This document shows, in pieces, positions 13,242-29,594 of a stretch of DNA of 63,529 bases; position 1 is the first letter of the stretch, and each line of letters opens with the position of its first letter. Source of the stretch: an uncultured Aminicenantes bacterium (lineage in GTDB: Bacteria > Acidobacteriota > Aminicenantia > UBA2199); contig CBDAFS010000006.1 of NCBI GenBank assembly GCA_965195285.1, positions 1 through 63,529 on the forward strand. Reading direction: 5' to 3'. The notes beneath the pieces are model-generated. The model did not search any database. It saw only the letters and a list, made by a program, of their open reading frames with translations, and was not told the origin of the DNA. The position numbers and the translations under genes were made by a program.

Positions 13242-14834
13242 TTACATGTTTATCTGAATGATATCGCTGTCGGTTTTCTGGGTGAAGAGGTCTTTCACGT
13301 CAATAACAATATCATATTTACCCTTGCCGATTCCGCCAAAATTCAGGGACAGGCTGATCTCTTTCTGTTTGGCGTTTAAATCTTTGCTCTGGTCAAAAAC
13401 AGTGATGTCCTGTCTGTTTTTGATACGAATCCGGATATTGAGTTTGCCTCCGAGATCGTTTTTCATATAGAAATCGGTCAGAGTCAGGGTAAGTGTTTTA
13501 TCTTTAAATGAAGCTTTTTTAATCTTGACCGGGGGCCCTTCAACCACTTTAAGCTTTGTTTCCTGTGGTAATAGACCGGTCCTGAGGGACTCATCATATA
13601 AAACCTTATGCCTTCTTTTATTTACTTTAACCTTGATCTTCCCGAGTTCATCCGGGTTTTCCGGTGCATAGGTGAGCAGATAATAGATATCTTGCTCCTT
13701 ACTGATGGCGTCCAATGCCAGGTCAACTTTTTTAGAATTAACCAGTATACCCCCGCTTTGCTTGCATACTTCATTCAGGTTTGCTTCCATGTCATTGGCC
13801 ATCCGGATATAATCGGTATCCTGTACCAGGGAGGGAATGTTGGTCCGAATAAATATCGAATGATGAATGGCATTTACCCTGGAGAAAATCCGGCTGACTT
13901 CTTCGGAAGGGAAATCATTGGATACTTTCTGGGCACGGTCAATTTCAGTGAGCAGCTTATTGATTAGTCTGGAAAAAATCACAAGTTCCTGTCTGACGCT
14001 GATTTGCCATCCGGCGATCAGAGTTCGCAGGATTCTTCGTATATCAGTGGACAGGATAATCCTGGGAAACAATTCCATCTGATAAAAGTTGATCACCCAT
14101 TTTTCCCTGTTGATTTTTTCCAAAAGTCTGGAAAATTGATAGTATTGCTCAATATCCGGAACCAGATACCTGGTCTTGTAGTCATTCCAGATCATTAAAT
14201 ACCTGGTTAAAAAATCCTTGATTACATAGTGTGTGGATTCCCCTCCTCTTTCAGAACTTCCGCTTCGTCTAATTTCGGTTTCAAATTTGGCCATGTTCAA
14301 TTCCTGCTCAATCTGTTTGATATACTGAAACATCGAAAGTCGGTCATAGTGACTTTCCTTTTTTATCATTTTTTCGATGTCTTCCCGGACCAGATTTTTT
14401 TCTTCCAGATTGTAAAATGCCTGGGTTTTTTTATTGACAATCACCAGAAGTTGGTCTGATTCACTGATAATTTCATTGAAGAGATAATCCAGTCCCTTTT
14501 TAAAATCATCATTGTAGTCAGTGGTTTGAAAGATCAGCACAAAGTAGCGTCCCGCCAGGGTCTGGTACTGGCCGGACTCAGGCCGGATGGTCAGGGTTCC
14601 GATCTTTTTTCTTTTGATGAAGAATCCGTTTATAGTCTGGAGTTTTTTCCCCTCAAATATTTTAAAGTCATCTTTGGTGAGATTATCGACAGGCCTTCCT
14701 TTGTAATGCACCCGAACCGGAACCTCAACATTGACCACATCAATCTTTTCTTTGACTGGCTGGTCCTGTTGTGAATCCAGTACGGGAAAAAGCAGGAGTA
14801 GAATGATGAAGATGAATGCCATTTTATTACTCAT
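13242..14834 (-). CDS. secreted VWA-related hypothetical protein (paralogue)
   Basis: Shares VNVEVPVRV, EKWVINFYQ.E.FP and YYLLTY with 11571..13160. Confidence 0.7.
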   Translation of the reverse strand: MSNKMAFIFIILLLLFPVLDSQQDQPVKEKIDVVNVEVPVRVHYKGRPVDNLTKDDFKIFEGKKLQTINGFFIKRKKIGTLTIRPESGQYQTLAGRYFVLIFQTTDYNDDFKKGLDYLFNEIISESDQLLVIVNKKTQAFYNLEEKNLVREDIEKMIKKESHYDRLSMFQYIKQIEQELNMAKFETEIRRSGSSERGGESTHYVIKDFLTRYLMIWNDYKTRYLVPDIEQYYQFSRLLEKINREKWVINFYQMELFPRIILSTDIRRILRTLIAGWQISVRQELVIFSRLINKLLTEIDRAQKVSNDFPSEEVSRIFSRVNAIHHSIFIRTNIPSLVQDTDYIRMANDMEANLNEVCKQSGGILVNSKKVDLALDAISKEQDIYYLLTYAPENPDELGKIKVKVNKRRHKVLYDESLRTGLLPQETKLKVVEGPPVKIKKASFKDKTLTLTLTDFYMKNDLGGKLNIRIRIKNRQDITVFDQSKDLNAKQKEISLSLNFGGIGKGKYDIVIDVKDLFTQKTDSDIIQINM

Positions 14835-14864: not shown

Positions 14865-16019
14865 TTAATAGTAATATCCCTTAATGGTTCGAATTTTATA
14901 TCTTTTCTTTCCCTTCACACTGACGGTTATCTTGCGAAACCTTTTCAGTTTGCCTTTCTTTTGGGGTTTGAATTGAAGTATATATTTGGCTTTTATATCT
15001 CTGCGGATCTCACGATAGATGGAGGGGATATCGCTAATGTCATCGAAAAGGAAGGTAATCCCACCTGAAGATACAGAAATGTTTTTTAAGATATCCTGAT
15101 AGCGGATGTCATCATAAAAAGAGGTTCTCTTTCCAATCGAATAGATCACGGAATTTGACCGTTCCACTCTTTTGATCAGGGTAAAGGGGTCAATGTAAGA
15201 ACTGTTGTCTTCGCCATCCGAAAAGAGGATGATGATATTCCGACCGGGAACCCCTTTCAGTAGCTTTGTGCAGTAGGCGACGGCATCATAAAGGGCTGTT
15301 GCTCCGAAGGGAAAGGCAATGGATAATGAATTGATGAGTTCATCGATATTGTTGGTAAAATCAGTATCCTCAAAGACCTCATGATTGAACATCACGATAA
15401 TGGCTTTGTCTTTTTTGGTAATCAAGGCTTCCAAAAAGATTTTGGCTGCATCCTTGACATCACCGATTTTATCCTTCATTGAGGAACTGATGTCCATTAG
15501 AAGTACCAGATTAAATTTGGTTTTTCCTTTTTTATCAAAATAAGTGATCTTTTTATCAACGCCCTCTTCGGTGATGATAAAATCATCCAAATTCAGGTCC
15601 TTGATATAATACCCATTCTGGTCGGTCACCACGACCGGAACCACTACCTGGGCAACATCAACCATGCGGGCATCGTCAAATTGATAAGAATTTATTTCGC
15701 TTTCCAGTATGACAATCTTGTGTATATCCTTTACCAGCAGCTTTAAGGTCCGGTTCTTGGGAATTTGACCGAAATCATAGTCTATAACATAAGGGGGAGC
15801 AGAAAGGTCTTTTAGAAATTTACCATCCAGGTAGATTTCCACGGAGCGAATCTTTTTCGGATCAATGTCCCTGAATTTAACTTCAATTTTCCTTTTACCG
15901 ACCCAAATGTCATCATTCAGCGGTGAAGCAAACCAGACTCTGGGGGTTTCCGAGAAAATAACCTGAAATCCAAAAAGAATTATCAATAAAAACCAACCTG
16001 TTTGTTTTAAACGGATCAT
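14865..16019 (-). CDS. VWA domain protein with N-terminal Ig-like domain
   Basis: MIDAS DISSS, GATALYDA, LFSDGED; signal peptide. Confidence 0.85.
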   Translation of the reverse strand: MIRLKQTGWFLLIILFGFQVIFSETPRVWFASPLNDDIWVGKRKIEVKFRDIDPKKIRSVEIYLDGKFLKDLSAPPYVIDYDFGQIPKNRTLKLLVKDIHKIVILESEINSYQFDDARMVDVAQVVVPVVVTDQNGYYIKDLNLDDFIITEEGVDKKITYFDKKGKTKFNLVLLMDISSSMKDKIGDVKDAAKIFLEALITKKDKAIIVMFNHEVFEDTDFTNNIDELINSLSIAFPFGATALYDAVAYCTKLLKGVPGRNIIILFSDGEDNSSYIDPFTLIKRVERSNSVIYSIGKRTSFYDDIRYQDILKNISVSSGGITFLFDDISDIPSIYREIRRDIKAKYILQFKPQKKGKLKRFRKITVSVKGKKRYKIRTIKGYYY

Positions 16020-19000
16020 TTTAACCTCACGTGACCTTTTTCTTGGAGTTTTTTTAGAATTTTTGTTAGGTGTGAATTGTTTAGAATATCAAAAATAAAG
16101 TATGTACTGAAATAATCTTTTATATAGTTCTGGGAAAAATATTTCCTGCATACATTGTACAGGTAATGATACAAGAATTGTCCCAAAAGTCTGGGAGGTA
16201 ACATTTTTTTATGGGAATGATAGGCAGCTTTGATTTTGAATTCATTAATCATTTCTCCTCCGGTCCAGTTGTTATCATAAAGGTTGGAGATTTCCTGGGG
16301 GAAAAGTTGATATTTTTGGGGTCTTAGGTTGCCAAAAGTGTGGTAATATACACCACCGAAATAATCAATTTCTTCTTGAACGCTTTTACTCAGATGGGTC
16401 TTTGTCAGTATGCCCAATTTATCGAAGGCAGAAAATTCTTTAAGGTATTTGTTTTTTCCCAGAAAGTTTTCTCCGAGCCTGAAAATTTCAGTGAAAAATA
16501 GGTAATACTCGTTGCTCTTATCATTGAGAAAATCGATTATTTTCCGATAGTGATAACCGGTGGTTATACTTTTAATTTCCTGGATGACCTCTTGATTGAT
16601 CTGGGTATTGTTTTTGGCCTTTTGAATGAGCTCCAATCCGAATTCAGTCAAAAGACCAATATATGATTGGCTGTTGGAGATAAGGGGAACCGGGTAAAAT
16701 TCAAGAATATTAAGAATAACCGATTGAATCTGCTTCTTGTCGTATATGATGTTCCTACTGAAAAGATGATCCTTCCAGCTTTGAGAAAACAAGATGTTGA
16801 GTCTTGAAAGTCCTCCCTGAAAGTAAAATCCCGAAAAGCGGTTTTTTATGGTGGGGGTTTTACAGTAATTCCAGGGTGTATACTCCTTGGTTTCTTCGAA
16901 ATCATGAAGGCGGGTAAAATTGGGATTTAAAAAGATTCTTAACCGTTCATTTTTGGCATTGAGGGCATAGGTCAGGGCCAGGAGATAATCCTGTAATTGG
17001 TGGATTAAATAATCGGATTTCAGTTTGGCAATGATGTTATTGATTTCCGTTGAAGGTGCTTTGGACTCCAATTTTAAAGCCAGATTTTGGACATCTCTTT
17101 CCAGATCTTCTCTAACATATTTTTTAATCCGGGAAATAATAAATCTGGGGGCATCATCACTGATGTCGGGATGGGGCAGTTGATTGAAGGCCTCAACTAG
17201 CTGAATTTTATAGGCGGGAATATTCAGCTTGTCCCCTTGTTCTGCTCTTTTCAATATTTGTTTCACTTCAATCAGGGTTGAGAGAGGGCAAACCTCTTGT
17301 GACTGAAGAATGTCATTGATGGTGGTTCTGGTACTGTCTTGAATCATGAATTTGTGTTGTCGGTTATTTATCTGAATGTACTGGTTGGGTATACCCTTTA
17401 AAATACTGGAAATCATGGCGTTGTCAATGGTATTCCGGTTGGGGTAGATGTTCATCTGGGTTTTGAAGAAATCAAAAATTTGATCGAAGCATTGTGATTT
17501 ATCAAGCGGAATCTTTATCAATTTATCGATTATCGTATCATAGTCCAGAAGATGGGAAGCGTATTTGGCCTGATAAGAGAGAATTTCGAACAGGGATTGG
17601 AAAATCGCTGTGAAAAGGATTCGGTCTTTCCGATTCTGCTTATCAAGCCGGATTACCCAGTCAATTATTTGACTGACCAGCTGGGGGTTTTTTACAGGGA
17701 TTTTTTCAATAAAATCTATTAGTATATTGTAATCCTGATAGTGTTCAAATAATTTGTGTATATTATCATCTGTCATAATTTCCGGTCGATGGTGAAACTT
17801 GGAATACAGAGAGATGAATTTTTGCAGGGAAGTCAACTCTTTTTTGTTGCTTGAATTCTCCAGTAAAGCCTTATACAGATGGAACAGTTCCGGTTTGTCG
17901 GTATCTGGCCTGGAAGCAGGTATAGGTCGACCACTGATTGTATCAATCCAGGATTCAAGTTTACCGGGAAAGGTCACTTTTCCATCCTTTACTTTCAATG
18001 CGTAAAGCAGGGTGAAAAAGTTAAAATTACCCAGTCTGGGGAATCTGGAGGTCTGCAGCTTTCCCTTTTTGCCAAGGGAAATTTTGTCTAAGATGGTTTG
18101 CATTTTTTCTGAATTAAAATCCAAAAGCAGGATTTTCCGGCTAGATTCCGGCAGGAAGAATGAGAAAACATAGAGATAGTTGAGTTTCCCATCCTGTTTG
18201 GTGGCAATTCCCTTGATAAATCCAAACGGGTCATGGGAAAGATCACTGCCACATAGTTGGGACCAGAAAGAGGCGGCTTCATCACCACCGGGCAAAATCA
18301 ATTTGTTATCATTGCTGCGTAAGGCATGGGATAATAGATACATCCCCATCAGCAATTTCTTGTCCTGGTATATCTGCTTCCAGGCCTGGGATTGAGGGGC
18401 GAGAGAATTGATATAGTTGATCTCATCTTCTGAAAAGCGATATAAAACCGCCATCAACAGAGAGAATCGTTCATTCATTAAGAGATATTCAAAAAAGGAA
18501 TGGGCATTGATTTCCAGGCCGGTGATGGTTTTCAGAAACTTAAAATCCCAGGGTATCTGAGTGGTTGATCCACTCAACCTGAAGTAGAGACGCTTGGTTT
18601 GGTTGATTTGCCTCTCCATCTTCTCGATGTCGATCCGAGAAAAACGATAATAATCGATGATTCCGGTTGACGCATCAATCATGATTTTATACTGACCGTT
18701 TTCCTCCTTTCTCAATTCCAGGCCCAGGAATCCCATTAACCGGATAGCCTGTTTCATCCCCTCATCCTGGCTGATATCAATGGTCATATGGGGTTTGCCA
18801 TCGGTGGTTTTTTTTCGGACGATCTGTCTTAGTTTTTTATGAATCATGGTGACATTCAGAAGTTTTCTTCTGATACCGGAGTCGAACAACTCTTCATTCG
18901 GGGGGTCTGAAAATAACAACCGGTCGTTCAGATAGTAAATGAAGTCGTTATCGGGCAGGTTATAGAAAAAATCCGTATAGTAGCAAATGTGATGAATATT

Positions 19001-19096
19001 TCCCGGCAGGATGATGGTCTTATCGGCCATCAAATGAATACTGAATATTGAAAGCAGAAAAATAAGGATGCATTTCTTGATGGGTCTAACCTTCAT
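16016..19096 (-). CDS. large secreted helical hypothetical protein
   Basis: 1026-aa ORF with signal peptide; 4-bp overlap with the VWA gene. Confidence 0.75.
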   Translation of the reverse strand: MKVRPIKKCILIFLLSIFSIHLMADKTIILPGNIHHICYYTDFFYNLPDNDFIYYLNDRLLFSDPPNEELFDSGIRRKLLNVTMIHKKLRQIVRKKTTDGKPHMTIDISQDEGMKQAIRLMGFLGLELRKEENGQYKIMIDASTGIIDYYRFSRIDIEKMERQINQTKRLYFRLSGSTTQIPWDFKFLKTITGLEINAHSFFEYLLMNERFSLLMAVLYRFSEDEINYINSLAPQSQAWKQIYQDKKLLMGMYLLSHALRSNDNKLILPGGDEAASFWSQLCGSDLSHDPFGFIKGIATKQDGKLNYLYVFSFFLPESSRKILLLDFNSEKMQTILDKISLGKKGKLQTSRFPRLGNFNFFTLLYALKVKDGKVTFPGKLESWIDTISGRPIPASRPDTDKPELFHLYKALLENSSNKKELTSLQKFISLYSKFHHRPEIMTDDNIHKLFEHYQDYNILIDFIEKIPVKNPQLVSQIIDWVIRLDKQNRKDRILFTAIFQSLFEILSYQAKYASHLLDYDTIIDKLIKIPLDKSQCFDQIFDFFKTQMNIYPNRNTIDNAMISSILKGIPNQYIQINNRQHKFMIQDSTRTTINDILQSQEVCPLSTLIEVKQILKRAEQGDKLNIPAYKIQLVEAFNQLPHPDISDDAPRFIISRIKKYVREDLERDVQNLALKLESKAPSTEINNIIAKLKSDYLIHQLQDYLLALTYALNAKNERLRIFLNPNFTRLHDFEETKEYTPWNYCKTPTIKNRFSGFYFQGGLSRLNILFSQSWKDHLFSRNIIYDKKQIQSVILNILEFYPVPLISNSQSYIGLLTEFGLELIQKAKNNTQINQEVIQEIKSITTGYHYRKIIDFLNDKSNEYYLFFTEIFRLGENFLGKNKYLKEFSAFDKLGILTKTHLSKSVQEEIDYFGGVYYHTFGNLRPQKYQLFPQEISNLYDNNWTGGEMINEFKIKAAYHSHKKMLPPRLLGQFLYHYLYNVCRKYFSQNYIKDYFSTYFIFDILNNSHLTKILKKLQEKGHVRLK

Positions 19097-19162: not shown

Positions 19163-19191
19163 ATACGGTTCATAAAGCCGGAATCGGATAA
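19163..19191 (-). promoter_or_regulatory. candidate ECF-type promoter TTATCC-N18-CGTAT
   Basis: Same motif and spacing found at 20636-20664; a sigma70-like TTGACA-16-TATGAT also lies at 19234-19261. Confidence 0.5.
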
Positions 19192-19280: not shown

Positions 19281-20612
19281 TTAATTTTCTTTTACAATAC
19301 GGAATCCGTAATCATAATCTTTTTCATAAGGATCTTTGGATCTACGGTTGGCCGACCGAATATCACTGGCTGGTGAGGTAATGCCTCCGCCTCTTATTAC
19401 CCGGTATATACCACTCGTCGGTCCCTGGGGGTTTTGATAGGGGGATTGGGAATAATAGGTGGGACTGTAGTAATCCTGGCACCATTCCCATACATTCCCG
19501 GCCATTTGATAGATACCGCTGGGGGTTGCTCCCGCACCATAGTTGTATGTATTTCTGACGCCTCTACCACAATCAAGAAAATTGGCAAGGTCACAGTTCG
19601 GAGGGGTGTTGCCCCAGGGGTAGCGATTTTGATTGGTCCCCCGGGCAGCCCGTTCCCATTGGGCCTCGGTGGGAAGGCGGATGTTCTCCCCGGTTTTCTG
19701 GGAAAGCCACTGGCAAAAGGCATTGGCTTCCTCCCAGCTGACATAGATTGCGGCATAATCTTTTTGCGAGGTTCTCAGATAATATTCATTGGACAGGGTT
19801 TGTCTTCCCGTATCCATACAGAATCGATCATACTGCGATACTGAAATTTCATATTTGGAAATATAATAGTCATCCAGATATACTTTATGTACCGGGGTTT
19901 CATCCGAATCACCTTCGTTAAAATCATCTCCCATCAGAAACTCTCCGGAAGGAATGTAAACCCAGTCGATCTCCGGGGTTTCAATATCGATGTCATCCTG
20001 GTCTTTTTTATTCAGTAAAAAATAAATAACCACGCCGACAATGATTACCCCGGCAATAACTGCAATCCAGGGAAATTTTTTTCTTTTTTCCTTTCTGCCT
20101 TGATATTGAATGACAGCCTTTTTATCAATGGGTTTAACCGGCTCGGGTTCCTTGAACTTGAAATGATATTCATCAATTTCTTCCTCTTCACCCAAAAGCG
20201 GATCGGTCTCCACTTCAGTTTCCATTAAATCTTTTTTGATAATGCGGATGGCATTCGAATCAAATCCGTTGATTTCCGGTAATTCCTCAATCTGGCCGTT
20301 ATTCAGCATTCGTTGAATCTTAGCCGAAAATGCCCTGGCCAGGTTTTCCTTGTCCATTTTTTCATAGCAGGCACAAAAAAGAATATAGATTTTGGCTTTG
20401 AAGATGAATTCTTCTGTCCCCAGCAGGTTTTCGGCTTCCTCCAAAAAGGAAGTCGCCTCTTCATAATGTCCCTGATTATACAATTTTAATGCCTGGGAAA
20501 ATTTTTCCTGTTTGGCATTCTGTGAACTGAGATTTAGGTTCCCCAAAAAAAGCAACATCATCAGCATAAATGAAACAAATTTGGTCATGGGGTAATTTTT
20601 AAAGTCTGTCAT
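19281..20612 (-). CDS. FGE-sulfatase (SUMF1/GldK-like) domain protein with N-terminal TPR-like region
   Basis: RLPTEAQWE, MAGNVWEW, RGG, GFR motifs; internal KKFPW-TM segment. Confidence 0.88.
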   Translation of the reverse strand: MTDFKNYPMTKFVSFMLMMLLFLGNLNLSSQNAKQEKFSQALKLYNQGHYEEATSFLEEAENLLGTEEFIFKAKIYILFCACYEKMDKENLARAFSAKIQRMLNNGQIEELPEINGFDSNAIRIIKKDLMETEVETDPLLGEEEEIDEYHFKFKEPEPVKPIDKKAVIQYQGRKEKRKKFPWIAVIAGVIIVGVVIYFLLNKKDQDDIDIETPEIDWVYIPSGEFLMGDDFNEGDSDETPVHKVYLDDYYISKYEISVSQYDRFCMDTGRQTLSNEYYLRTSQKDYAAIYVSWEEANAFCQWLSQKTGENIRLPTEAQWERAARGTNQNRYPWGNTPPNCDLANFLDCGRGVRNTYNYGAGATPSGIYQMAGNVWEWCQDYYSPTYYSQSPYQNPQGPTSGIYRVIRGGGITSPASDIRSANRRSKDPYEKDYDYGFRIVKEN

Positions 20613-20635: not shown

Positions 20636-20664
20636 ATACGATAATAAGAAGTGATAGTGGATGA
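20636..20664 (-). promoter_or_regulatory. candidate ECF-type promoter TCATCC-N18-CGTAT
   Basis: Matches the 19163-19191 motif; sits just upstream of the SD and ATG at 20612. Confidence 0.5.
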
Positions 20665-20721
20665 TGGAAATTATTTTTTTTCAGTAGTTGCTACCCGGGT
20701 CAGGTTACTTTATAATATATC

Positions 20722-23592
20722 GTGAATCCAATGAAAAAAATTATTCCAATTTTAGTTATATTGTTGACGGTCCTGTTATGGGGATGCAGGCAGAAACCGG
20801 TTTTGGCTCCGGTCAAGCCGGTTACGGCTCCCAATCCTTTTGATATAACCGCTCAAAAGTTAGCCGAAGAAGCCCAATTTAAAAGTTCATCCTATTATTT
20901 GAAAAAGGCAATCGAAATATATCAAAACCGGGAACACTGGGGTAAGGTCATTCAGTGCCATATCAAGATTGCCAATAATTACCATCAAATGGGTAATGAC
21001 CGGAAAGCCATGGGCCATTTGAACCAGGCATTAACCCTGGTTTTAAAATATTCCGGACATGAATTCACAGACCTGGCCAATCAATTCAAAAAACTGGCCC
21101 ATACACATTTTTCAAATAAAGATTATGATAAAGCTCTGGAATTGTATGAAAAGGCGCTGAAACTTCAGTTAAAGGTTTTCAGTGAAAATCATCTCCAGAT
21201 TGCCAAAATTTATAACAGTATTGCCCTTGTTTACTGGAACAAGGACAATATCCGAAAAGCAAAGGAATACTATGACAAATCACTGTCGATAAAATTGAGA
21301 GGATTCTATGACTTCCGGATGGATCTAACCAAGAAGTATGCTTACATTAATGGTGGTGAAACCCATTATACCAGTTTTCGCCAACTCAGGGACCAGTTGG
21401 AGAAATCTCTGAAAATTTACAATGAAACCTATGGGAGTTTTCATCCGCTGATGGCCACTCTTTATGAAAGAATCGGGATTTTACACAGTTTCGAGGGTTC
21501 CTTTGAAAGGGCCATGCAGTACTTTCGGAAATCCCTGAATGTCAGAATCGAAACTTTTGGCGATGAAAACATGGCGGTTGCCAGCAGCTATCATAATATT
21601 GGTGTTTGCCTTCGCTTGCAAAAGGAATATCTCGAAGCTGAAAAGTTCTTGGAACAGTCACTTCAAATAAAAAATGTTAAATACGGGGAGAGTCATCCCT
21701 TTGTAGCTGATTCATATTATCAGTTGGGCAAGGTTCACTTTTTTCAGAATCAATTTGAAAGAGCGCTTCATTTTTTTCAAAAATCCCTGATTGCCATGGT
21801 TCCCCAGTTTTCTGACCTTCGAATCAATTCCAACCCCAGGTTGGAGAAAGTTTTTGTCAAAAGCGAATTATTAAAGGTGCTGGCCGACAAAGCGGAAACA
21901 TTGAACAAACAATATTTATTTGATCCGAAACAAACAAAAGCCCTGAAAATATCCTTTGAAACCTATAAGCTCATGTCTCATTTGATTGATATGATTCGAA
22001 GGGAATATAGATCTGCCGATTATAAATTGGTTTTTGGAGAAAAGTCACATGAAATTTACAATAAAGCCATTCAGGTCGCTTTAACCCTCTATGAGTTAAC
22101 CGGGGAAAAAATATTCAAAAAAGAAGCGTTTGGTTTTTCAGAAAAAAGTAAGGCAGCCCTTTTGTATGAATCTGTCATTGAATCGAATGCCCGAAAATTT
22201 GCCGGGATACCTCTGGAACTGCTGGAAAAAGAGAGAAAGTTAAAAAAGGAGCTGGCTTTTTTCGGGACCAATCTTGAAAAAGAATATAGAAAAGAGTCCA
22301 ACATGAATCTGCAAAAAGTTGCCCAATTGGAAACCGATTACTTTCAAAAAAAAAATGAATACCAGAAGTTAATAAAATATTTTGAAGAAAATTATAAAAA
22401 ATACTTTCAGTTGAAATATCAACATCTTCCGGTTGCAATTTCAGATTTACAGAAACGGTTGGATTCAAACACTGCCCTGGTTGAATATTTTTGGGGAAAC
22501 AAAGTAATCATCGCTTTTGTTGTAACCAAAGAAAGTCATCAAATATTCTCTCAACCCGTTGATGCTGATTTTAACCGGATTGTTCAATCCTATTACCGCT
22601 CGATAAAAAAAATTGAGGAAAAATCTTTTCTGTATTTAAGCCGGAAATTACACCAAATTTTAATTGAACCCATTCTCAAATGGATTGGAGACAAAAAAAA
22701 ACTGATCATCATTCCCCATGGAGATTTATATTACGTTCCCTTTGAGTCTTTGGCTTCTGAAGGCAGTCAGGAAAATGATTTTCAATATGTTGATTATTTA
22801 ATCAGACATTACTCTATTTCCTATCACTATTCAGCAAGTTTGTGGTTTTTTAAAGATCTGTCTGTTGCCTCCAAGCGGAAAAAATCCTTTATTGGATTTG
22901 CACCGGTATTCAACGAGAAAGGAAATCAGGGCTATATCCTTTCCAGTGAGGAACCGGTACGGTCCCATCAGGAGAACTACCCGGATTCCCGTTCTTCAAA
23001 CCTAGAGGGGAGAAAGTTCCCTCCATTACATGCTTCAGAAAATGAGATACTTGATATTATTGAATTATTCAGAAAAAACCGGAAAAGAGCTGTCGGTTAT
23101 TTTCATAAACAGGCAACCGAAAGCAATTTCAAATTATCAGAAACCAAAGATTACAATTATATCCATATTGCCACCCATAGCCTGAGTGATAGGATAAATC
23201 CAAAACTCTCCGGGCTTCTTTTTTTTCATGACAAGGATAAAATGATCAGTGAGGATGGAATTTTATATTCAGAGGAAACTTTCAACCTGGATCTGGATGC
23301 AGAATTGATTGTACTGAGCAGCTGTGAAAGCGGGATCGGAAAACTGGTAAAGGGTGAAGGTATGATCGCCCTGAACCGGGGGTTTTTTTATTCTGGAGCA
23401 AATCACATCGTTTTTTCTTTATGGAAAGTAGAAGATAAAGCAACCTGTCGTTTAATGATTGAATTGTATAGGAATATTTTAAAGAATATACCTCTGTCGT
23501 CGGCCCTTCAGCAGGCAAAATTAACTTTAATCAAGGATCGATTTACGGCTTTTCCAAAATATTGGAGCGGATTTATTTTGGTTGGGCGGTAA
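20722..23592 (+). CDS. TPR-CHAT (caspase-like) protease, lipoprotein
   Basis: Lipobox LLWGC; kinesin-light-chain-like TPRs; IIIPHG, HIATHS (His), LSSCESG (Cys), SLWKVED, P.YWSGF. Confidence 0.93.
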   Translation: MNPMKKIIPILVILLTVLLWGCRQKPVLAPVKPVTAPNPFDITAQKLAEEAQFKSSSYYLKKAIEIYQNREHWGKVIQCHIKIANNYHQMGNDRKAMGHLNQALTLVLKYSGHEFTDLANQFKKLAHTHFSNKDYDKALELYEKALKLQLKVFSENHLQIAKIYNSIALVYWNKDNIRKAKEYYDKSLSIKLRGFYDFRMDLTKKYAYINGGETHYTSFRQLRDQLEKSLKIYNETYGSFHPLMATLYERIGILHSFEGSFERAMQYFRKSLNVRIETFGDENMAVASSYHNIGVCLRLQKEYLEAEKFLEQSLQIKNVKYGESHPFVADSYYQLGKVHFFQNQFERALHFFQKSLIAMVPQFSDLRINSNPRLEKVFVKSELLKVLADKAETLNKQYLFDPKQTKALKISFETYKLMSHLIDMIRREYRSADYKLVFGEKSHEIYNKAIQVALTLYELTGEKIFKKEAFGFSEKSKAALLYESVIESNARKFAGIPLELLEKERKLKKELAFFGTNLEKEYRKESNMNLQKVAQLETDYFQKKNEYQKLIKYFEENYKKYFQLKYQHLPVAISDLQKRLDSNTALVEYFWGNKVIIAFVVTKESHQIFSQPVDADFNRIVQSYYRSIKKIEEKSFLYLSRKLHQILIEPILKWIGDKKKLIIIPHGDLYYVPFESLASEGSQENDFQYVDYLIRHYSISYHYSASLWFFKDLSVASKRKKSFIGFAPVFNEKGNQGYILSSEEPVRSHQENYPDSRSSNLEGRKFPPLHASENEILDIIELFRKNRKRAVGYFHKQATESNFKLSETKDYNYIHIATHSLSDRINPKLSGLLFFHDKDKMISEDGILYSEETFNLDLDAELIVLSSCESGIGKLVKGEGMIALNRGFFYSGANHIVFSLWKVEDKATCRLMIELYRNILKNIPLSSALQQAKLTLIKDRFTAFPKYWSGFILVGR

Positions 23593-24394
23593 TGTCATTT
23601 TCAATGAAAAATTTTCCGACATAGAGTAAATCAGTTTGATTTTCAAGTTTCCAGTAATATAATCCAGGGGGCAATATTTCTTTTAAAACAAACTGGTTGG
23701 CTTGAATTGTGTATTCGAATATTACCTCATTATGGTTGCTGAGAATTTTTAACTGAGAGGGCTTGTCTGTAAATGATTCCCAGGCGAATATAATATTATC
23801 GATTAAAGTGGAATTATTGGCTGGTGAATTCACTTTTATGGTCTCATTGCGGAACTGGCTGTTGATCATATATTCCAGATTGGGATTGATGGCGAAATTT
23901 TTGTTTTGGCTGTCTTCCACAGACCTTTTTTCCGTCTGGGAGTGTTTTATATTTTCTATTCGGGGTAATAATTTTATTGAAGTATGGGAATTCTGGCTGG
24001 CCGGGTTTGAGATGGAGGCGGAATTACCTTTTAAATCTATTTTGTTTTGAAAAAGTTGTCTATCGATAATGGTAAAATAAAAAGTCAAGAACAGTGCCAT
24101 GAAAAAGAAAGAGGCAGCAATCCTTTTCAGATATGTATATTGTTTCCGGGGAGATTTCTCAATGGTCAGCTCTGGAATCATATCTTTAAAAGGTCTTTGC
24201 TTTTGTAGTGACCGGGAATTTTTCAGACACAAAAACACATCCAAAATATTGTCTTTACAAATCGGGCAGCTCTCCACATGATTTAATATATTTTCAGTTG
24301 GTTTCGATGATTTTTCATTTAATAAATAGTCCACATAAATTGCTGTTTGATGATCATTTAAATGGCTTGTGTTGATATCATTTTTTGTTTCCAT
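23573..24394 (-). CDS. zinc-finger (HxxxCxxC) membrane anti-sigma factor-like protein
   Basis: HVESCPIC, one TM, C-terminal beta-rich domain (PGLYYWKL); coupled to the sigma-like gene. Confidence 0.75.
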   Translation of the reverse strand: METKNDINTSHLNDHQTAIYVDYLLNEKSSKPTENILNHVESCPICKDNILDVFLCLKNSRSLQKQRPFKDMIPELTIEKSPRKQYTYLKRIAASFFFMALFLTFYFTIIDRQLFQNKIDLKGNSASISNPASQNSHTSIKLLPRIENIKHSQTEKRSVEDSQNKNFAINPNLEYMINSQFRNETIKVNSPANNSTLIDNIIFAWESFTDKPSQLKILSNHNEVIFEYTIQANQFVLKEILPPGLYYWKLENQTDLLYVGKFFIENDITAQPK

Positions 24395-25383
24395 TATTGA
24401 TCCCCTTTAAATAAGTTCTTATTTTGATAATATAGATTGACTAAATCGGGTATGTTTTTTTGGTTATAAACCTGGTCATTATGGGTGCGGTTGAGATGTA
24501 AAATGATTTCGTCGATTTTCACAGTAATCCATTTCCTGAGGGTATCGCTTTTATTCTGTTTCCCTTCATTGCGATTGAATATACCAATGATACTTTCAAA
24601 TACCCGTTTGTCTTTTTTAAATCTAAAATCCTGAGATAATTGATTGATATCAGCGGCAGAGCAGTGAGGAAAATATTTTAATATGTCATCCGGTGTCATG
24701 GGGATACGAAACTTGATTTTCAGGCACAATTCAATTTTGGGTTGGGATTTATAATACATCCTGAATATAAAATGAAGTTTGGTTAGTTCCTCTTCAATGA
24801 ATAATTTATTGCTGGTGAATTCAAAATTTGTTTCCGGTAAAGGCTGCCTTATATCATCAAGATTAACCGTACTTAACATTTTATTTTTCCCCTCTCTGAT
24901 AATATCTATATATATATTACGGACGGTCACCATAAAATAGGATGTAAAAGAGGGGTTTTTTTTAAATTTAAAATCGTACAGTTCCTGAATCTTACCCATT
25001 TTATTCGATAACAATCGGGTAATAACCTCTTGAAGAATATCCTCTCGTTCATGAAAGATCATGTGTTTTGAATAAATATATCGGGAAATTAACCTCCGAT
25101 ATATTAAAATGATGATCTGAGGATAATCCCCCAAAATACTTTCAAAGCAAAGTATATCATTTATCATTTCCTTTAATTCCTCATCATTTCTGCTCAACTG
25201 GAAGGAATTTCGCCTGTTTGTATTGGCTTTGAGAAAATCTGTGAAATGCTTTAAAAGTATTTGATCCAAATCGGGGAAAAGGGTTCTGGGAAAAACATTG
25301 GCTGGGTAAAGTTGGTTTTTAATTACATCGCGGATCAATGCCTGTATTTCATTCAAATTAAAGTCCTTTACTTCAGCGGCCAC
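24394..25383 (-). CDS. atypical ECF-like sigma factor
   Basis: Region 2-like EDILQEVITRL...SFTSYFMVTVRNIYIDIIR; stop overlaps the anti-sigma start. Confidence 0.7.
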   Translation of the reverse strand: MAAEVKDFNLNEIQALIRDVIKNQLYPANVFPRTLFPDLDQILLKHFTDFLKANTNRRNSFQLSRNDEELKEMINDILCFESILGDYPQIIILIYRRLISRYIYSKHMIFHEREDILQEVITRLLSNKMGKIQELYDFKFKKNPSFTSYFMVTVRNIYIDIIREGKNKMLSTVNLDDIRQPLPETNFEFTSNKLFIEEELTKLHFIFRMYYKSQPKIELCLKIKFRIPMTPDDILKYFPHCSAADINQLSQDFRFKKDKRVFESIIGIFNRNEGKQNKSDTLRKWITVKIDEIILHLNRTHNDQVYNQKNIPDLVNLYYQNKNLFKGDQ

Positions 25384-25501
25384 TCTTTTTTTATAGCATA
25401 CCCCAGAGGTGTTTTCAATTATATTTTTTCCAGAGTGATCGAGTAGATTGTCCTTCCCATCTTATATGAATTATTTACCCGCTTGAAAAAAGAGAGAACT
25501 C

Positions 25502-27079
25502 TTAGTTGATATAGCCCAGGCGTTTCAATTTTTCAAGCTTTTTTCGATTGATATTTTTCTTTCCGAATTTTTGCTGCCCGATTTTTTTCTTTTGTTTAAG
25601 AGAATCCGAGAGAAAAAAAGAAAAGAACTCTCGTTCAGCTGATATAAGGTTTTTCCGATCAATTTGAGCCATAGGTGAAAATGAATCATCCAGAATCAAG
25701 TTGTACAGTTCTTTATTCCGGGAGTTGTTTTTCCAGTAATAAATTCCCTGATAGGGCCATTTGATGATGGATATTTTATTGGTTTTGGATCCGGGAAGAT
25801 AAGTGAATGAATAAATATTTTCATTTGGGGTATCTTCTTTTTCTAATAGATTAATAAATGAATGTTGAAAATTTTCATTTTTCAGGTTTAAAAGTTCAAG
25901 TACGGTAGAAGAAAGGCCCGACATTGAGACCGGTGATGTTATGATTTTTTGAGTTTTTCCAGGAATATATATCATGAGTGGCACTCTGATGAATTGCTGG
26001 TTTAAATATTCAACATGCCCCACCAATCCATCCCGTTCCCCCAGGCCTTCTCCGTGGTCGGAGAAGATAGCGATTATAGTATTATCAAACAAATTGAATT
26101 CCTCAACCTCTTGAAGAAATTCGCCGATGTGTTTATCCATATATTCCACTTCCTGCTGGTACATGATCCGAGCCGCTTTGATTTTAAGTTTGGGTAAAAC
26201 CTGAAGATGGATCCACTCTTCCTCTTCACATTCCAGGTTTATCCATCCACTTTGGCCAGTAAGAAAATGGCAGCCTGAAAAAATATCTTTTCTAAATTTT
26301 ATGTTTTCTGATTTTGCGGTGATATTGGCATCTGAAGTCAATTCGATAATTCCGATCCCCTGAAAATCGGAAGTCGGGTAATCTATATCAAATCTGAATC
26401 GGTGAGTTCCCGGCAGAAGTTTTATCTTGGGTAATATTTTACCCTTGTATGGGTTTAGCTCATTTATTTTTTTGCCATCCTGATAGATATTCATGATCGC
26501 TTTTACGGTTGGGGGGCCGTAGGGATAGTGGGGGTCCGAAAAGTGAACAAACATAAAAAATTTCTTGTTTTTTATATCTCTTAATTTTTGCCGGGCATGA
26601 AGGGAAATTTTGTCCGCGGTCAGAAATAAATGATGGATCTCTTCTGAGCAGAGTTTGGAATTGAACTCATCAAAACCCTTCCAAAACCCCGGTTCAATCA
26701 GAGACATAAGGGATATGATCCCATAGGTAAAGTATCCGTTATGCTTGAGAATCTCCTGTATTAATTTATATTTACCATCATATCGAAAATGGTTTTGGAT
26801 GACCCCAAGTTGATGGGGATAATATGATGTAAATATGGACAGATGAGAGGGCAGGGTCTCGGGTATGGTCACAAATGCTTTTTCAAATACTTGAGCCTTT
26901 TTTGAGAAATTTTTCAAGGCTGGAGTTTTTGATTTTGCCCCCCAACCGCTATCAACATAGTCAAAACGGGTGGTGTCCAGGCTTATAAAAATGAGGTTTG
27001 CCCCCCTGGTTCTGTTTTGATTTTGACAGCCGCCTACAATAGACATGGATATAACAATTAAGAGAAACCTGGTTGTCAT
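25502..27079 (-). CDS. sulfatase-like hydrolase/transferase
   Basis: ISLDTTR, TLPSH, DPHYPY, SDHGE, GH, LKRLGYI; start probably ATG 27079. Confidence 0.85.
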   Translation of the reverse strand: MTTRFLLIVISMSIVGGCQNQNRTRGANLIFISLDTTRFDYVDSGWGAKSKTPALKNFSKKAQVFEKAFVTIPETLPSHLSIFTSYYPHQLGVIQNHFRYDGKYKLIQEILKHNGYFTYGIISLMSLIEPGFWKGFDEFNSKLCSEEIHHLFLTADKISLHARQKLRDIKNKKFFMFVHFSDPHYPYGPPTVKAIMNIYQDGKKINELNPYKGKILPKIKLLPGTHRFRFDIDYPTSDFQGIGIIELTSDANITAKSENIKFRKDIFSGCHFLTGQSGWINLECEEEEWIHLQVLPKLKIKAARIMYQQEVEYMDKHIGEFLQEVEEFNLFDNTIIAIFSDHGEGLGERDGLVGHVEYLNQQFIRVPLMIYIPGKTQKIITSPVSMSGLSSTVLELLNLKNENFQHSFINLLEKEDTPNENIYSFTYLPGSKTNKISIIKWPYQGIYYWKNNSRNKELYNLILDDSFSPMAQIDRKNLISAEREFFSFFLSDSLKQKKKIGQQKFGKKNINRKKLEKLKRLGYIN

Positions 27080-27135
27080 CACTCTTGATAATAAGGCTTG
27101 TTTCCCTGCGATCATATTACACGTAAGTATGGAGT

Positions 27136-27402
27136 TTATTCTTCTGTTTTTTCAACGATGATGGTCAGTTTTGCCACCAGTGCTCCAATGGCACCCACTG
27201 CAGCCAGTACCGGAGCCAATGCCGCACCGACCAGGCCAATGATAAGAGGGATTTCAATAAGGGTCTTCCCTTCTTCATTTTTTATGATGATGCGGCGAAT
27301 ATTACCCTGATGGATTAGCTCCTGTATTTTACTGATGATTTCACTGCCATCCAATTTGAATTCTTGGGATTTGTTCCTGCCTGTTTCTTTCTTTTCTGAC
27401 AT
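27136..27402 (-). CDS. DUF4342 family protein
   Basis: ELIHQGNIRRIIIK...LIEIPL...LAPVLAAVGAIGAL. Confidence 0.85.
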   Translation of the reverse strand: MSEKKETGRNKSQEFKLDGSEIISKIQELIHQGNIRRIIIKNEEGKTLIEIPLIIGLVGAALAPVLAAVGAIGALVAKLTIIVEKTEE

Positions 27403-27701: not shown

Positions 27702-28550
27702 ATGGGGCTTGTCACCAATAAATCTTATCAGCGATATGTGTATGCCATTTCTGATGCCACGGGAAAAACTTGCGAGACGGTGGTTCAGGCAGCCCTCAGT
27801 CAGTTTACAACCACTCAGATTATTTTAAAGACCATTTCCAATGTGCGATCCCTTAAACAGATAAATGAGGTGGTTGAAATGGCGGTTGCTGTTGATGGTA
27901 TTATCATTTATACAATGGTTTCCACCGAGTTAAGGCAAAAGTTATCAGAAATGGGTCGTCTGCATGCGGTACCGACGGTAGATATCCTGGGACCGGTACT
28001 CACCCGTTTTACGGATTTTTTTGAAATTTCACCTCTGGCTCAGCCGGGACTGTTTCGCCAGTTGGATAGCGATTATTTTAAACGGATTGAATCCCTGGAC
28101 TATACAATCAAACATGATGATGGCATTGGTGTTTCGGCTCTTAATGAGGCAGAGATTGTCATTCTGGGTGTATCAAGAACCACCAAAACCCCTGTAAGTA
28201 TTTATCTTTCCTACCGGGGATGGAAGGTTGCCAACATTCCCGTTATTCCGGGTTTTCAATTGCCCAAGGAACTTTTTTCTATTGACCAGGATAAAATAAT
28301 TGGCCTGAATATTAATCCCAACCGCCTTCACCTGATCCGGATGGAACGTCAATCAAAACTGAATAATTATGATCTGGGTGATTACACCGATCCGGAAAAA
28401 ATCAAGAGTGAAATTGCTTATGGATTGAGAATCTATCAAGAGAATTGCTGGCCGGTGGTAAGTGTCACCTATAAATCGATTGAAGAGACCGCAACTGATA
28501 TTATGCGAATTATTTATGCCAAAAAAGGTATAAAAAAGGGCAAAATGTAG
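27702..28550 (+). CDS. ppsR: PEP synthase/PPDK regulatory kinase-pyrophosphorylase (DUF299)
   Basis: ISDATG.T, HDDG, GVSRTTKTP, SIEETA; TTGACA-17-TAAAAT upstream. Confidence 0.92.
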   Translation: MGLVTNKSYQRYVYAISDATGKTCETVVQAALSQFTTTQIILKTISNVRSLKQINEVVEMAVAVDGIIIYTMVSTELRQKLSEMGRLHAVPTVDILGPVLTRFTDFFEISPLAQPGLFRQLDSDYFKRIESLDYTIKHDDGIGVSALNEAEIVILGVSRTTKTPVSIYLSYRGWKVANIPVIPGFQLPKELFSIDQDKIIGLNINPNRLHLIRMERQSKLNNYDLGDYTDPEKIKSEIAYGLRIYQENCWPVVSVTYKSIEETATDIMRIIYAKKGIKKGKM

Positions 28551-28556
28551 AATTCT

Positions 28557-29594
28557 ATGCTTATTCTGGGTATAGAAACCTCCTGTGATGAAACGGCTGC
28601 TTCTCTGATTGAGCGTGGTTCATCAAACCGGGTTCTGAATGAAAAAATTAAATCTCAAATCCCCCTGCATGCCAAGTATGGAGGTGTGGTTCCGGAAATC
28701 GCTTCCAGGAGTCACCTGGAATATATTGATTTAATTACCGATCAGGTTTTAAAAGAATCGGGTCGAACAATGAAGGAGGTTGATCTGCTGAGTGTTACCC
28801 AGGGGCCCGGCCTGATTGGCTCTCTGCTGGTCGGACTTTCCTTTGCCAAGGGATTGTCATATCAAAACCAAATCCCTCTGGTACCGGTTGACCATATTTT
28901 CTCTCATATTGAATCCGCATTCATTGATTACCCGGATATTGCCTATCCGCTGGTCGCTTTGGTGGTTTCAGGCGGCCACACATCACTATTCTTTCAAAAA
29001 TCGAAATTTGATCGCCGGCTCATATCCAAGACCCGGGATGATGCGGTTGGAGAGATTATGGATAAAATTGCCAAATTTTTTGGTCTAGGATATCCCGGAG
29101 GACCGGTTCTGGATAAAATATATCATTCCGGTGATCCCGCCTGTTTTACCTTCACTTTCCCCAGAATGAGTGATGGTTCAAATGATTTTTCCTTTTCCGG
29201 ATATAAAACAGCGGTATTGCGCCTGGCAAAGGAGAAATGCATTCTCTCCGAATCGCAGTTGTTTACCGATTTGATCGCCTCTTTTTTGCATTCGATTGTT
29301 GATTACTTACTGTTGAAAACCACTGAAGCTGTTAATCAATATTCAGCCAAATCCGTCATAGTGGCTGGCGGGGTTAGTAGGAATTCGCTGTTGAGGAAAA
29401 AATTTCAGGATGCCTTTAATAGAAAAAATACCCCAATTTATTTGCCATTACCCAAGTTTTGTACTGACAATGCATCAATGGTTGCCTGGATGGGATATGA
29501 AACCTTCAATCATTATCCGGACAGGAATTATTTCGATTATTATTTAAATGCCTACTCACGCGCATATTTCCGGGAGAGTGGTAAACATCGCTAG
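28557..29594 (+). CDS. tsaD: tRNA t6A threonylcarbamoyltransferase
   Basis: LGIETSCDET, GGVVPEIASR, VSGGHT, DDAVGE, TDNA. Confidence 0.97.
   Translation: MLILGIETSCDETAASLIERGSSNRVLNEKIKSQIPLHAKYGGVVPEIASRSHLEYIDLITDQVLKESGRTMKEVDLLSVTQGPGLIGSLLVGLSFAKGLSYQNQIPLVPVDHIFSHIESAFIDYPDIAYPLVALVVSGGHTSLFFQKSKFDRRLISKTRDDAVGEIMDKIAKFFGLGYPGGPVLDKIYHSGDPACFTFTFPRMSDGSNDFSFSGYKTAVLRLAKEKCILSESQLFTDLIASFLHSIVDYLLLKTTEAVNQYSAKSVIVAGGVSRNSLLRKKFQDAFNRKNTPIYLPLPKFCTDNASMVAWMGYETFNHYPDRNYFDYYLNAYSRAYFRESGKHR

Follow-up and report, generated by a model that had tools for sequence, protein, structure and literature searches.

A TPR-CHAT protein gene conserved beside a zinc anti-sigma and sigma factor gene pair in Aminicenantes and other bacterial phyla

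The window analysed here is a 63,529-nt stretch of DNA from an uncultured Aminicenantes bacterium (GenBank assembly GCA_965195285.1, contig CBDAFS010000006.1, positions 1 to 63,529 of the forward strand). Between positions 20,722 and 25,383 it contains three genes that encode a caspase-like TPR-CHAT lipoprotein, a zinc-type membrane anti-sigma factor and a sigma factor of the sigma-70 family. A preliminary description, made from the letters and their open reading frames (ORFs), proposed that the trio forms a CRISPR-independent signalling system in which the CHAT protein cleaves the anti-sigma factor across the cell envelope. The trio is a real module that is conserved across several bacterial phyla. 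The genes are as follows.

20722-23592, + strand: gene for the TPR-CHAT lipoprotein (ORF of 956 aa)
23573-24394, - strand: gene for the zinc-type, single-pass anti-sigma factor (ORF of 273 aa)
24394-25383, - strand: gene for a divergent sigma-70-family (extracytoplasmic function [ECF]-like) sigma factor (ORF of 329 aa)

The CHAT and anti-sigma genes converge. The CHAT stop codon (TAA, 23590-23592) lies beyond the anti-sigma stop codon (23573-23575), which gives a 20-nt convergent overlap of the 3' ends. The stop codon of the sigma gene and the start codon of the anti-sigma gene have one base in common (TAATG), and these two genes are translationally coupled. The ORFs, the 20-nt overlap, the lipobox, the His/Cys dyad, the HxxxCxxC motif, the transmembrane (TM) helix and a beta-sandwich outside the cytoplasm were each recovered as first described. 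The CHAT gene stands as an ORF at 20722-23592, but translation probably begins at the ATG at 20731, because a 93%-identical relative (locus L059) begins MKKIVP.

Sixteen Aminicenantes loci, from as many related genomes, all have the sigma gene next to the anti-sigma gene, and the CHAT gene is convergent and abutting in 13 of these. Four genomes (G007, G022, G029 and G005) have no CHAT gene next to the pair on the contig. All four contain a full-length orthologue with 46-52% identity, which is 6.7 kb downstream on the same contig in G007 and on another contig of a fragmented assembly in the other three. The anti-sigma gene of G005 sits on a contig of 1.6 kb.

The same association is found in the gene content of 61 related genomes. 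The anti-sigma gene is present in 18 of them, with one additional weak match (8e-4). A CHAT orthologue (E<=1e-70) is present in 17 of the 18, and the remaining genome (G011, locus L037) has a CHAT gene adjacent to the pair. None of the other 43 genomes contains a CHAT orthologue. Genome G019, which is 93% complete, lacks both genes, and its two congeners carry both. These relatives are not independent of one another, so the pattern is read as a contrast between eight genera that have the pair and 24 that do not, and not as a statistic.

Beyond these relatives, a scan of one genome per species returned 130 anti-sigma relatives, from which 80 loci were kept. The loci are labelled as Aminicenantes, Acidobacteriota, Bacteroidota (Chitinophagaceae, Saprospiraceae and Lewinellaceae), Ignavibacteriota, KSB1, Calditrichaceae and Neomarinimicrobiota; the labels of some metagenome-assembled genomes look unreliable. 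A TPR-CHAT gene is in the flank of 68 of the 80 loci. It is convergent and downstream in 59 loci, co-directional and downstream in eight, and upstream in one. The gap between the anti-sigma and CHAT genes is 100 nt or less in 49 loci, and the two are separate genes in 68 of the 68 CHAT-bearing loci. Twelve of the 80 loci have no CHAT gene; six of these contain less than 1.8 kb of downstream sequence.

The reciprocal test began from the CHAT gene. Seventy-seven metagenome loci were picked by patterns of the CHAT subfamily and searched with a hidden Markov model (HMM) of the anti-sigma C-terminal domain (C-domain). An ORF with this domain adjoins the CHAT gene in 58 of the 77 loci, 55 of them convergent and three co-directional. 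Five loci contain too little sequence to judge. Conservation of the neighbourhood had been set beforehand as a check on the proposal, and it is upheld in 68 of the 80 loci and 58 of the 77 metagenome loci; in the 61 genomes, both genes are found in the same 18 and in none of the other 43.

The sigma gene is less constant than the other two. A sigma gene of the type found in the window is present in 57 of the 80 loci and undetected in 23. Nineteen anti-sigma proteins from loci without this sigma type have the same C-domain (…P.LE.M….RS…GLYYWKLE…) behind a TM segment, and a different zinc N-terminal domain (EHCFxCxxC). In such loci the upstream gene matches a Pfam sigma-70 model in 11 of 17 cases tested (Sigma70_r2, r4 and/or Sigma70_ECF at E<=1e-4; one by r2 alone), and its product has the ordinary size of an ECF sigma factor (~196-218 aa). 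The CHAT gene still neighbours the anti-sigma gene in most of these loci. Because the C-domain and the CHAT protein are kept while the sigma factor and zinc domain differ, what stays constant is the pairing of the CHAT protein with the periplasmic domain of the anti-sigma factor. This pair has been combined with at least two types of sigma/anti-sigma domain. Comparative genomics could hardly give stronger support to the functional linkage of the three genes.

The CHAT gene could instead be a conserved neighbour, or a member of the regulon, with no signalling link to the pair. Adjacency is not function, and within the window no ECF motif or operon structure couples the CHAT gene to the other two; its promoter looks sigma-70-like. 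This account is very improbable in view of a two-way adjacency at 81-92% of informative loci, which spans several phyla and persists through inversion of gene orientation. The presence and absence of the two genes also match exactly in the 61 genomes, and the linkage tracks the C-domain and not the sigma type.

In the CHAT protein, the Pfam CHAT model (PF12770) matches residues 640-956 with an E-value of 5e-59 and 200.5 bits (cut-off 24), covering 286 of 289 model positions. Several Pfam TPR families match residues ~50-360. The histidines H815 and H819 (IHIATHS) and the cysteine C868 (LSSCESG) are invariant in 81 orthologues, and likewise in 13 Aminicenantes sequences. The choice between H815 and H819 as the catalytic residue is our assumption, based on the known motif. 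The lipobox cysteine, Cys22 (LLWGC), is retained in at least 90% of the 81 orthologues. These sites were located by alignment of the orthologues.

20785-20787, + strand: Cys22 of the CHAT protein
23176-23178, + strand: His819 of the CHAT protein
23323-23325, + strand: Cys868 of the CHAT protein

A hydrophobic N-terminal signal sequence, read by eye, is present in nearly all of the full-length CHAT proteins from the 68 CHAT-bearing loci, where five of the CHAT ORFs run off a contig end. The type of export signal varies among lineages; the lipobox is found mainly in Aminicenantes, and signal-peptidase-I-type sequences are found elsewhere. The dyad motifs are matched by regular expressions in 63 of the 68 loci. 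Four of the five misses fail one of the two strict patterns, and the fifth gene is cut by a contig end. A profile search of PDB sequences with the whole CHAT protein returned TPR proteins only, and the same search with the CHAT domain alone returned no match. A second CHAT-domain gene is found in the same genome, outside the module (contig C31:20418-21458, open frame of 1444 aa, E 4.4e-41).

The following features of the anti-sigma factor were placed by alignment and on an AlphaFold2 model.

24257-24280, - strand: zinc motif H39xxxC43xxC46 (alignment)
24053-24139, - strand: TM helix, residues 86-114 (AlphaFold2 model)
23597-23905, - strand: residues 164-266, with the conserved helix NPNLEYM..R182 and, behind it, a beta-sandwich (alignment and AlphaFold2 model)

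In 62 anti-sigma sequences, C43 and C46 are invariant and H39 and H11 are at least 90% conserved, which is the H...HxxxCxxC pattern of zinc anti-sigma domains. The protein belongs to no Pfam or NCBIfam family; Pfam zf-HC2 matches two of 16 family members, weakly. A profile search of PDB sequences returned nothing meaningful. The evidence that bears on a putative inhibition of the sigma factor by this protein is the one-base gene overlap together with the adjacency in 16 of 16 loci. The AlphaFold model has a mean predicted local distance difference test score (pLDDT) of 73, and of more than 90 in both folded parts. It consists of three N-terminal helices, the TM helix at residues 86-114, a disordered segment at 120-163, a helix at 171-178 (NPNLEYMI) and an eight-strand beta-sandwich at 188-264. 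The predicted topology has the N-terminus inside and the C-domain outside the cytoplasm. The preliminary description would have been refuted by a CHAT protein and an anti-sigma C-domain in different compartments. Both are predicted to be extracytoplasmic, from the signal sequences and the AlphaFold2 model respectively, and the objection does not arise, since the protease and the beta-sandwich are predicted to share the periplasm.

The C-domain family is large. A threshold of E<=1e-3 gives 2674 cluster representatives, and one of E<=1e-10 gives 1190. Among the best 150 of the 2674 relatives, almost every protein has ~100-340 residues and carries the domain at its extreme C-terminus. These sequences define an unannotated anti-sigma C-terminal domain without a Pfam model. 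The beta-sandwich itself resembles generic Ig/FnIII-like domains, with no stand-out match (best Z 8.6, root-mean-square deviation [rmsd] 2.3, 85 residues). Three giant proteins (P0282, P0294 and P0383; 3729, 1435 and 949 aa) contain 7-14 tandem copies that match only the core of the beta-sandwich, so that this fold also serves as a repeat unit in other proteins.

Arg182 is invariant and lies at the junction of the conserved helix and the sandwich. This arrangement admits a reversal of roles, in which the linker and beta-sandwich of the anti-sigma factor would inhibit the CHAT protein as a pseudosubstrate, as securin does. Release of the periplasmic protease would then be the main output and release of the sigma factor a secondary one. 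A conserved helix and an invariant Arg do precede the sandwich, and the part of PMC11506125 drawn on here describes separase, a structural relative of TPR-CHAT proteins, as inhibited by securin in its active site. The reversal leaves unexplained why the domain is constantly fused to a zinc anti-sigma domain behind a sigma gene, which is of the window type in 57 of the 80 loci and a canonical ECF gene in most of the others tested. We regard it as improbable.

The sigma factor is very divergent. It has no Pfam match at E<=0.01, and its match to TIGR02937 (E 3.8e-6, 26.6 bits) is below the cut-off of 42.9. It begins with a conserved, helical extension of ~78 residues. The sigma-2 domain (~79-170) follows, then a disordered linker (168-189) and, at the C-terminus, a divergent helical domain. 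Sigma70_r2 matches weakly in 13 of 15 family members at E<=1, with a best E-value of 1.6e-5, and precomputed PF04542 matches are present on nine of 102 homologues. No Pfam region-4 match is found in the window sigma factor or in the family members. When aligned with canonical ECF sigma factors by hhalign, residues 97-203 match with 87.6% probability (E 3.5e-6).

The AlphaFold2 model of the sigma factor has a pLDDT of 85. In a VIA-align fold search with the model, residues 79-170 are matched by the sigma-2 domains of SigB, RpoE, SigH, AlgU, SigW and others (Z 7-8.7, rmsd 2-3.5 A); the best match has Z 8.7 and rmsd 2.1 over 81 residues. Foldseek returned no match to the model at E<=1e-3, and a profile search of PDB sequences with the sigma factor returned nothing meaningful. 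The protein is an ECF-like member of the sigma-70 family with a supported sigma-2 domain, and it may belong to the ECF group in the strict sense. What had been called simply a sigma factor is thus borne out by Sigma70_r2, the fold search and hhalign in its sigma-2 domain, and it is strongly divergent from the families of Pfam and TIGR02937.

The genes on the far side of the CHAT gene provide the probable output of the system. The elements and genes concerned are as follows.

19164-19189, - strand: motif ATCCG-N17-CGTA, which resembles an ECF-type promoter and lies upstream of the 1026-aa gene at a distance of 67 nt
16016-19096, - strand: gene for an exported 1026-aa protein, first gene of a probable target operon (no Pfam family)
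14865-16019, - strand: gene for a VWA-domain protein (VWA 3.4e-12)
13242-14834 and 11571-13160, - strand: genes for two paralogous exported proteins of ~530 aa that begin ...VVNVEVPVRV (operon members)
20636-20664, - strand: motif TCATCCA-N17-CGTAT, upstream of the FGE-sulfatase-domain gene (motif scan)
19281-20612, - strand: gene for a 443-aa membrane protein that has an FGE-sulfatase domain (Pfam 9.1e-48), inserted between the genes for the 1026-aa and CHAT proteins
20688-20716, + strand: sigma-70-like promoter TTGCTA-17-TATAAT directly upstream of the CHAT gene (consensus scan only)

The motif TYATCC-N18-CGTAT, named in the preliminary description for a reconstitution reporter, occurs at exactly two sites, both on the - strand and just upstream of the 1026-aa and FGE-sulfatase-domain genes. 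This count is not significant (43 of 100 shuffles give two or more matches at one mismatch or fewer), and the consensus had been drawn from the same two sites. A core of it, WTCCR-N16-17-CGTA, is phylogenetically conserved. The core is found at the same place upstream of the 1026-aa orthologues in five loci (L033, L034, L035, L037 and L038), in otherwise AT-rich and unconserved intergenic sequence. It also precedes 1026-aa orthologues that are remote from the trio, in loci L049, L051 and L052 (genomes G001, G005 and G022). The FGE-domain orthologue in L029 has the motif as well, at 11145-11169. Before the co-occurring operon, the motif is conserved in five genera. In genus g11, three additional copies of the 1026-aa gene (L053, L055 and L056) lack it. 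The orthologue scans therefore agree with the suggestion that the envelope genes next to the trio carry a conserved ECF-type promoter motif.

Against a background of 134 matches to WTCCR-N16-17-CGTA in 2 x 3.28 Mb, eight matches in the genome are intergenic with a downstream ORF. One of these precedes a 44%-identical paralogue of the third gene of the operon (contig C27). Other intergenic matches precede a weak relative of the N-terminal part of the FGE protein, an OmpA-family protein and a beta-lactamase-fold protein.

The operon follows the trio across the 61 genomes. The 1026-aa gene is present in the same 18 genomes as the trio and in two incomplete ones, is divergent and next to the CHAT gene in six Aminicenantes loci, and is followed by the VWA gene in ten of 11 loci. 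An Atlas search with the 1026-aa protein returned no usable match. In this way a likely regulator is assigned to a conserved Aminicenantes operon of large exported proteins.

No ECF-type motif that would indicate autoregulation is found upstream of the sigma genes, and most loci show an extended -10 element (TGnTATAAA) just before the start. In the window this element (TGCTATAAA) is at 25390-25398 (- strand), and only 6 nt separate its end from the GTG annotated as the start of the sigma gene; L024, L027-L032 and L037 have elements like it. Its position suggests either a leaderless or very short-leader sigma mRNA or a start codon farther downstream. The motif scan found no ECF-type motif that points towards the CHAT gene. 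The sensor parts would thus be expressed constitutively, and the envelope regulon would depend on the sigma factor. In L034, L035, L037 and L038, an element that resembles TTGACA-N17-TATAAA points towards the 1026-aa gene from upstream of the ECF-type motif and overlaps the CHAT start (ATGTCAA on the other strand). It may act as an additional promoter or simply reflect the overlapping coding sequence.

The operon also bears on what the CHAT protein does. The protein could be a sensor or co-regulator that docks on the beta-sandwich, as RseB does on RseA or a transducer on FecR, and that signals by binding and release. A different site-1 protease would then degrade the anti-sigma factor, and the CHAT active site would cut the 1026-aa or VWA proteins or the CHAT protein itself. 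The linkage data also fit a docked sensor, the beta-sandwich looks like a generic Ig/FnIII binding module, and in Aminicenantes the CHAT gene is head-to-head with the exported operon. However, the dyad is invariant in 81 sequences, which shows selection on proteolysis, and the trio persists in phyla that have no adjacent 1026-aa operon, since an adjacent operon is seen only in Aminicenantes-type loci. Since the operon is not adjacent in those phyla, the anti-sigma factor is the sole partner that is always near the CHAT gene. On this evidence a purely sensory role is rather unlikely, and it is the alternative that we take most seriously.

The wider surroundings of the trio are unremarkable for defence functions. 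PADLOC gave no match among the five window proteins tested. Tandem Repeats Finder found only two short repeats in the window, neither of them a CRISPR array, and no cas genes are present at the locus, which therefore lacks the Cas7-11/CRISPR association of a type III-E craspase. The proposed independence from CRISPR is in accord with these results and with the export signal of the CHAT protein. A 300-bp tandem repeat (2.3 copies, 71% matches) is at 61744-62442, inside a 1077-aa ORF at 60185-63418. The trio is flanked by the FGE-sulfatase (formylglycine-generating-enzyme-like) membrane protein gene at 19281-20612 (- strand) and by a sulfatase gene at 25502-27115 (- strand), and the conservation of the latter is limited to the genus (L023 and L024). 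Ordinary neighbours at 9241-11526 (+ strand), 27136-27402 (- strand) and 27702-29594 (+ strand) include a TonB-dependent receptor, a DUF4342 protein, a kinase/pyrophosphorylase-family protein (Pfam Kinase-PPPase) and an unannotated 345-aa ORF.

Pairs of ECF sigma and anti-sigma factors are a major route of trans-envelope signalling in bacteria. For most ECF sigma/anti-sigma families, we know of neither the site-1 protease nor the signal. The locus points to a widespread family in which a protease, a caspase-like CHAT domain with a TPR sensor, is encoded beside its presumed substrate.

The binding, cleavage, signal and site-2 steps of the following model are ones that we infer. The sigma/anti-sigma pair would be expressed from a housekeeping-type promoter and would not be autoregulated. 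The anti-sigma factor would hold the sigma factor through its cytoplasmic zinc domain and expose the disordered linker, the short conserved helix and the beta-sandwich in the periplasm, where the sandwich would be the dedicated partner of the exported TPR-CHAT cysteine protease. An envelope signal, presumably read by the TPR part, would trigger the CHAT protein to cut the periplasmic segment of the anti-sigma factor in trans, as the site-1 cleavage. The invariant Arg182 at the helix/sandwich junction is a candidate P1 residue. An RseP-type site-2 protease would then clear the membrane stub; the genome encodes an M50 site-2 protease. The freed sigma factor would transcribe from WTCCR-N16-17-CGTA the exported-protein operon (1026-aa and VWA genes) and a few other envelope genes.

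The CHAT protein as site-1 protease is the reading that we favour. It has an invariant dyad and always the same partner domain, and the logic of two known systems, DdvA and craspase, fits. Several observations weigh against it. The partner gene is missing despite sufficient flank in six of the 80 loci and in 14 of the 77 metagenome loci, the latter with at least 900 nt downstream. No fusion of anti-sigma factor and CHAT is found in the best 150 of the 2674 C-domain relatives, so there is no Rosetta-stone support. The C-terminal helical domain of the sigma factor is only weakly sigma-4-like (Z 5.1) and is left unaligned by hhalign, and the putative reading of WTCCR-N16-17-CGTA by this sigma factor is drawn from co-occurrence alone. 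A cut at Arg182 would leave a periplasmic stub of ~68 residues, which is longer than the stub that DegS leaves on RseA. For DdvA, the anti-sigma factor of Myxococcus xanthus described below, the part of PMC11506125 used here reports that CHAT-dependent cleavage is undemonstrated and that mutation of the dyad has no effect in unperturbed cells. With these points on either side, cleavage of the anti-sigma factor in trans by the CHAT protein stands for us at an even balance.

A broader proposition can be built on it. Exported TPR-CHAT proteins would be a large, unrecognised class of caspase-like, trans-acting site-1 proteases. Each would be devoted to a single ECF anti-sigma factor, whose cognate beta-sandwich at the C-terminus would serve as a docking or degron domain. 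The whole would form a portable module, joined to two or more types of sigma/anti-sigma domain in Acidobacteriota, Bacteroidota, Ignavibacteriota, KSB1 and their relatives. This we put forward tentatively, with slightly less than even confidence.

Searches of the literature for CHAT with ECF and anti-sigma terms, or with periplasm and sigma terms, found no stand-alone exported TPR-CHAT protein paired with an anti-sigma factor. The word CHAT is absent from the main text of the ECF reclassification (PMC7826278), whose supplement was outside this coverage, so that an existing group number or CHAT context is possible there. The preliminary description knew of no characterised system of this kind. 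That statement is outdated, in so far as DdvA (PMC11506125) and the CHAT context of ECF54 (PMC8999054) are described in the parts of these papers drawn on here.

In ECF54, according to the portion of PMC8999054 covered, CHAT proteins are part of the conserved genomic context, there is no anti-sigma factor, and the protease is proposed to act on the sigma factor itself. The association of ECF sigma and CHAT genes and the proposed proteolytic control are common to both systems (PMC8999054, in part). In contrast to ECF54, the window locus has a dedicated anti-sigma domain as the constant partner.

Type III-E craspase (Cas7-11-Csx29/Csx30/CASP-sigma) shares the central logic. In the sections of PMC10028731 used here, the TPR-CHAT protein Csx29 cleaves a loop of Csx30, which relieves the inhibition of an ECF-like sigma factor. 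The craspase is cytoplasmic, RNA-guided and bound to Cas7-11 (PMC10028731, same sections), whereas the protease and target domain of the window are predicted to be outside the cytoplasm. The window anti-sigma factor is a zinc-type (ZAS) TM protein that is unrelated to Csx30.

In the RseA-DegS-RseP pathway, which controls sigma-E, a signal-gated site-1 protease of the periplasm and, after it, an M50 site-2 protease inactivate a membrane anti-sigma factor (PMC10028731, as summarised in the part covered). The window system also has a membrane anti-sigma factor, and an M50 gene is present in its genome. DegS is a PDZ serine protease, whereas the site-1 enzyme of the window would combine a cysteine protease of clan CD with a TPR sensor and be encoded beside its substrate.

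DdvA/DdvS of Myxococcus xanthus is the one system found here in which a periplasmic CHAT has been studied. DdvA is a ZAS anti-sigma factor that itself carries a TPR-CHAT as its periplasmic domain; the TPR-CHAT forms a dimer and its dyad is intact (this and the following details are from the part of PMC11506125 covered). The DdvA/DdvS system and the window have in common an ECF-type (in the window, ECF-like) sigma factor, a single-pass anti-sigma factor whose cytoplasmic part is a zinc (CHCC) domain, and a TPR-CHAT that lies, or in the window is predicted to lie, in the periplasm and has an intact dyad. For both, the proposal is a site-1 cut in a flexible linker, after which RseP acts. The authors of the DdvA study propose that a signal induces self-cleavage of this linker before RseP acts, with CHAT-dependent cleavage awaiting validation, and DdvA without its TPR-CHAT becomes exposed to RseP (PMC11506125). 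In DdvA the TPR-CHAT is fused and forms a dimer, with trans self-cleavage between protomers, and the system controls a CBASS/CRISPR island (PMC11506125). DdvA-type fusions were found, according to the same part of that report, only in Myxococcota and one Comamonas (PMC11506125). The window differs from DdvA in its separate exported protease, an anti-sigma factor that ends in a small beta-sandwich, an envelope output and an occurrence in many lineages. The locus is a split and far more widespread variant of the DdvA-type system that would act in trans. The split form separates the enzyme from its substrate, and the idea of CHAT as a site-1 protease is therefore directly testable. If the broader proposition above is true, the module would be an envelope counterpart of separase-securin and of craspase-Csx30.

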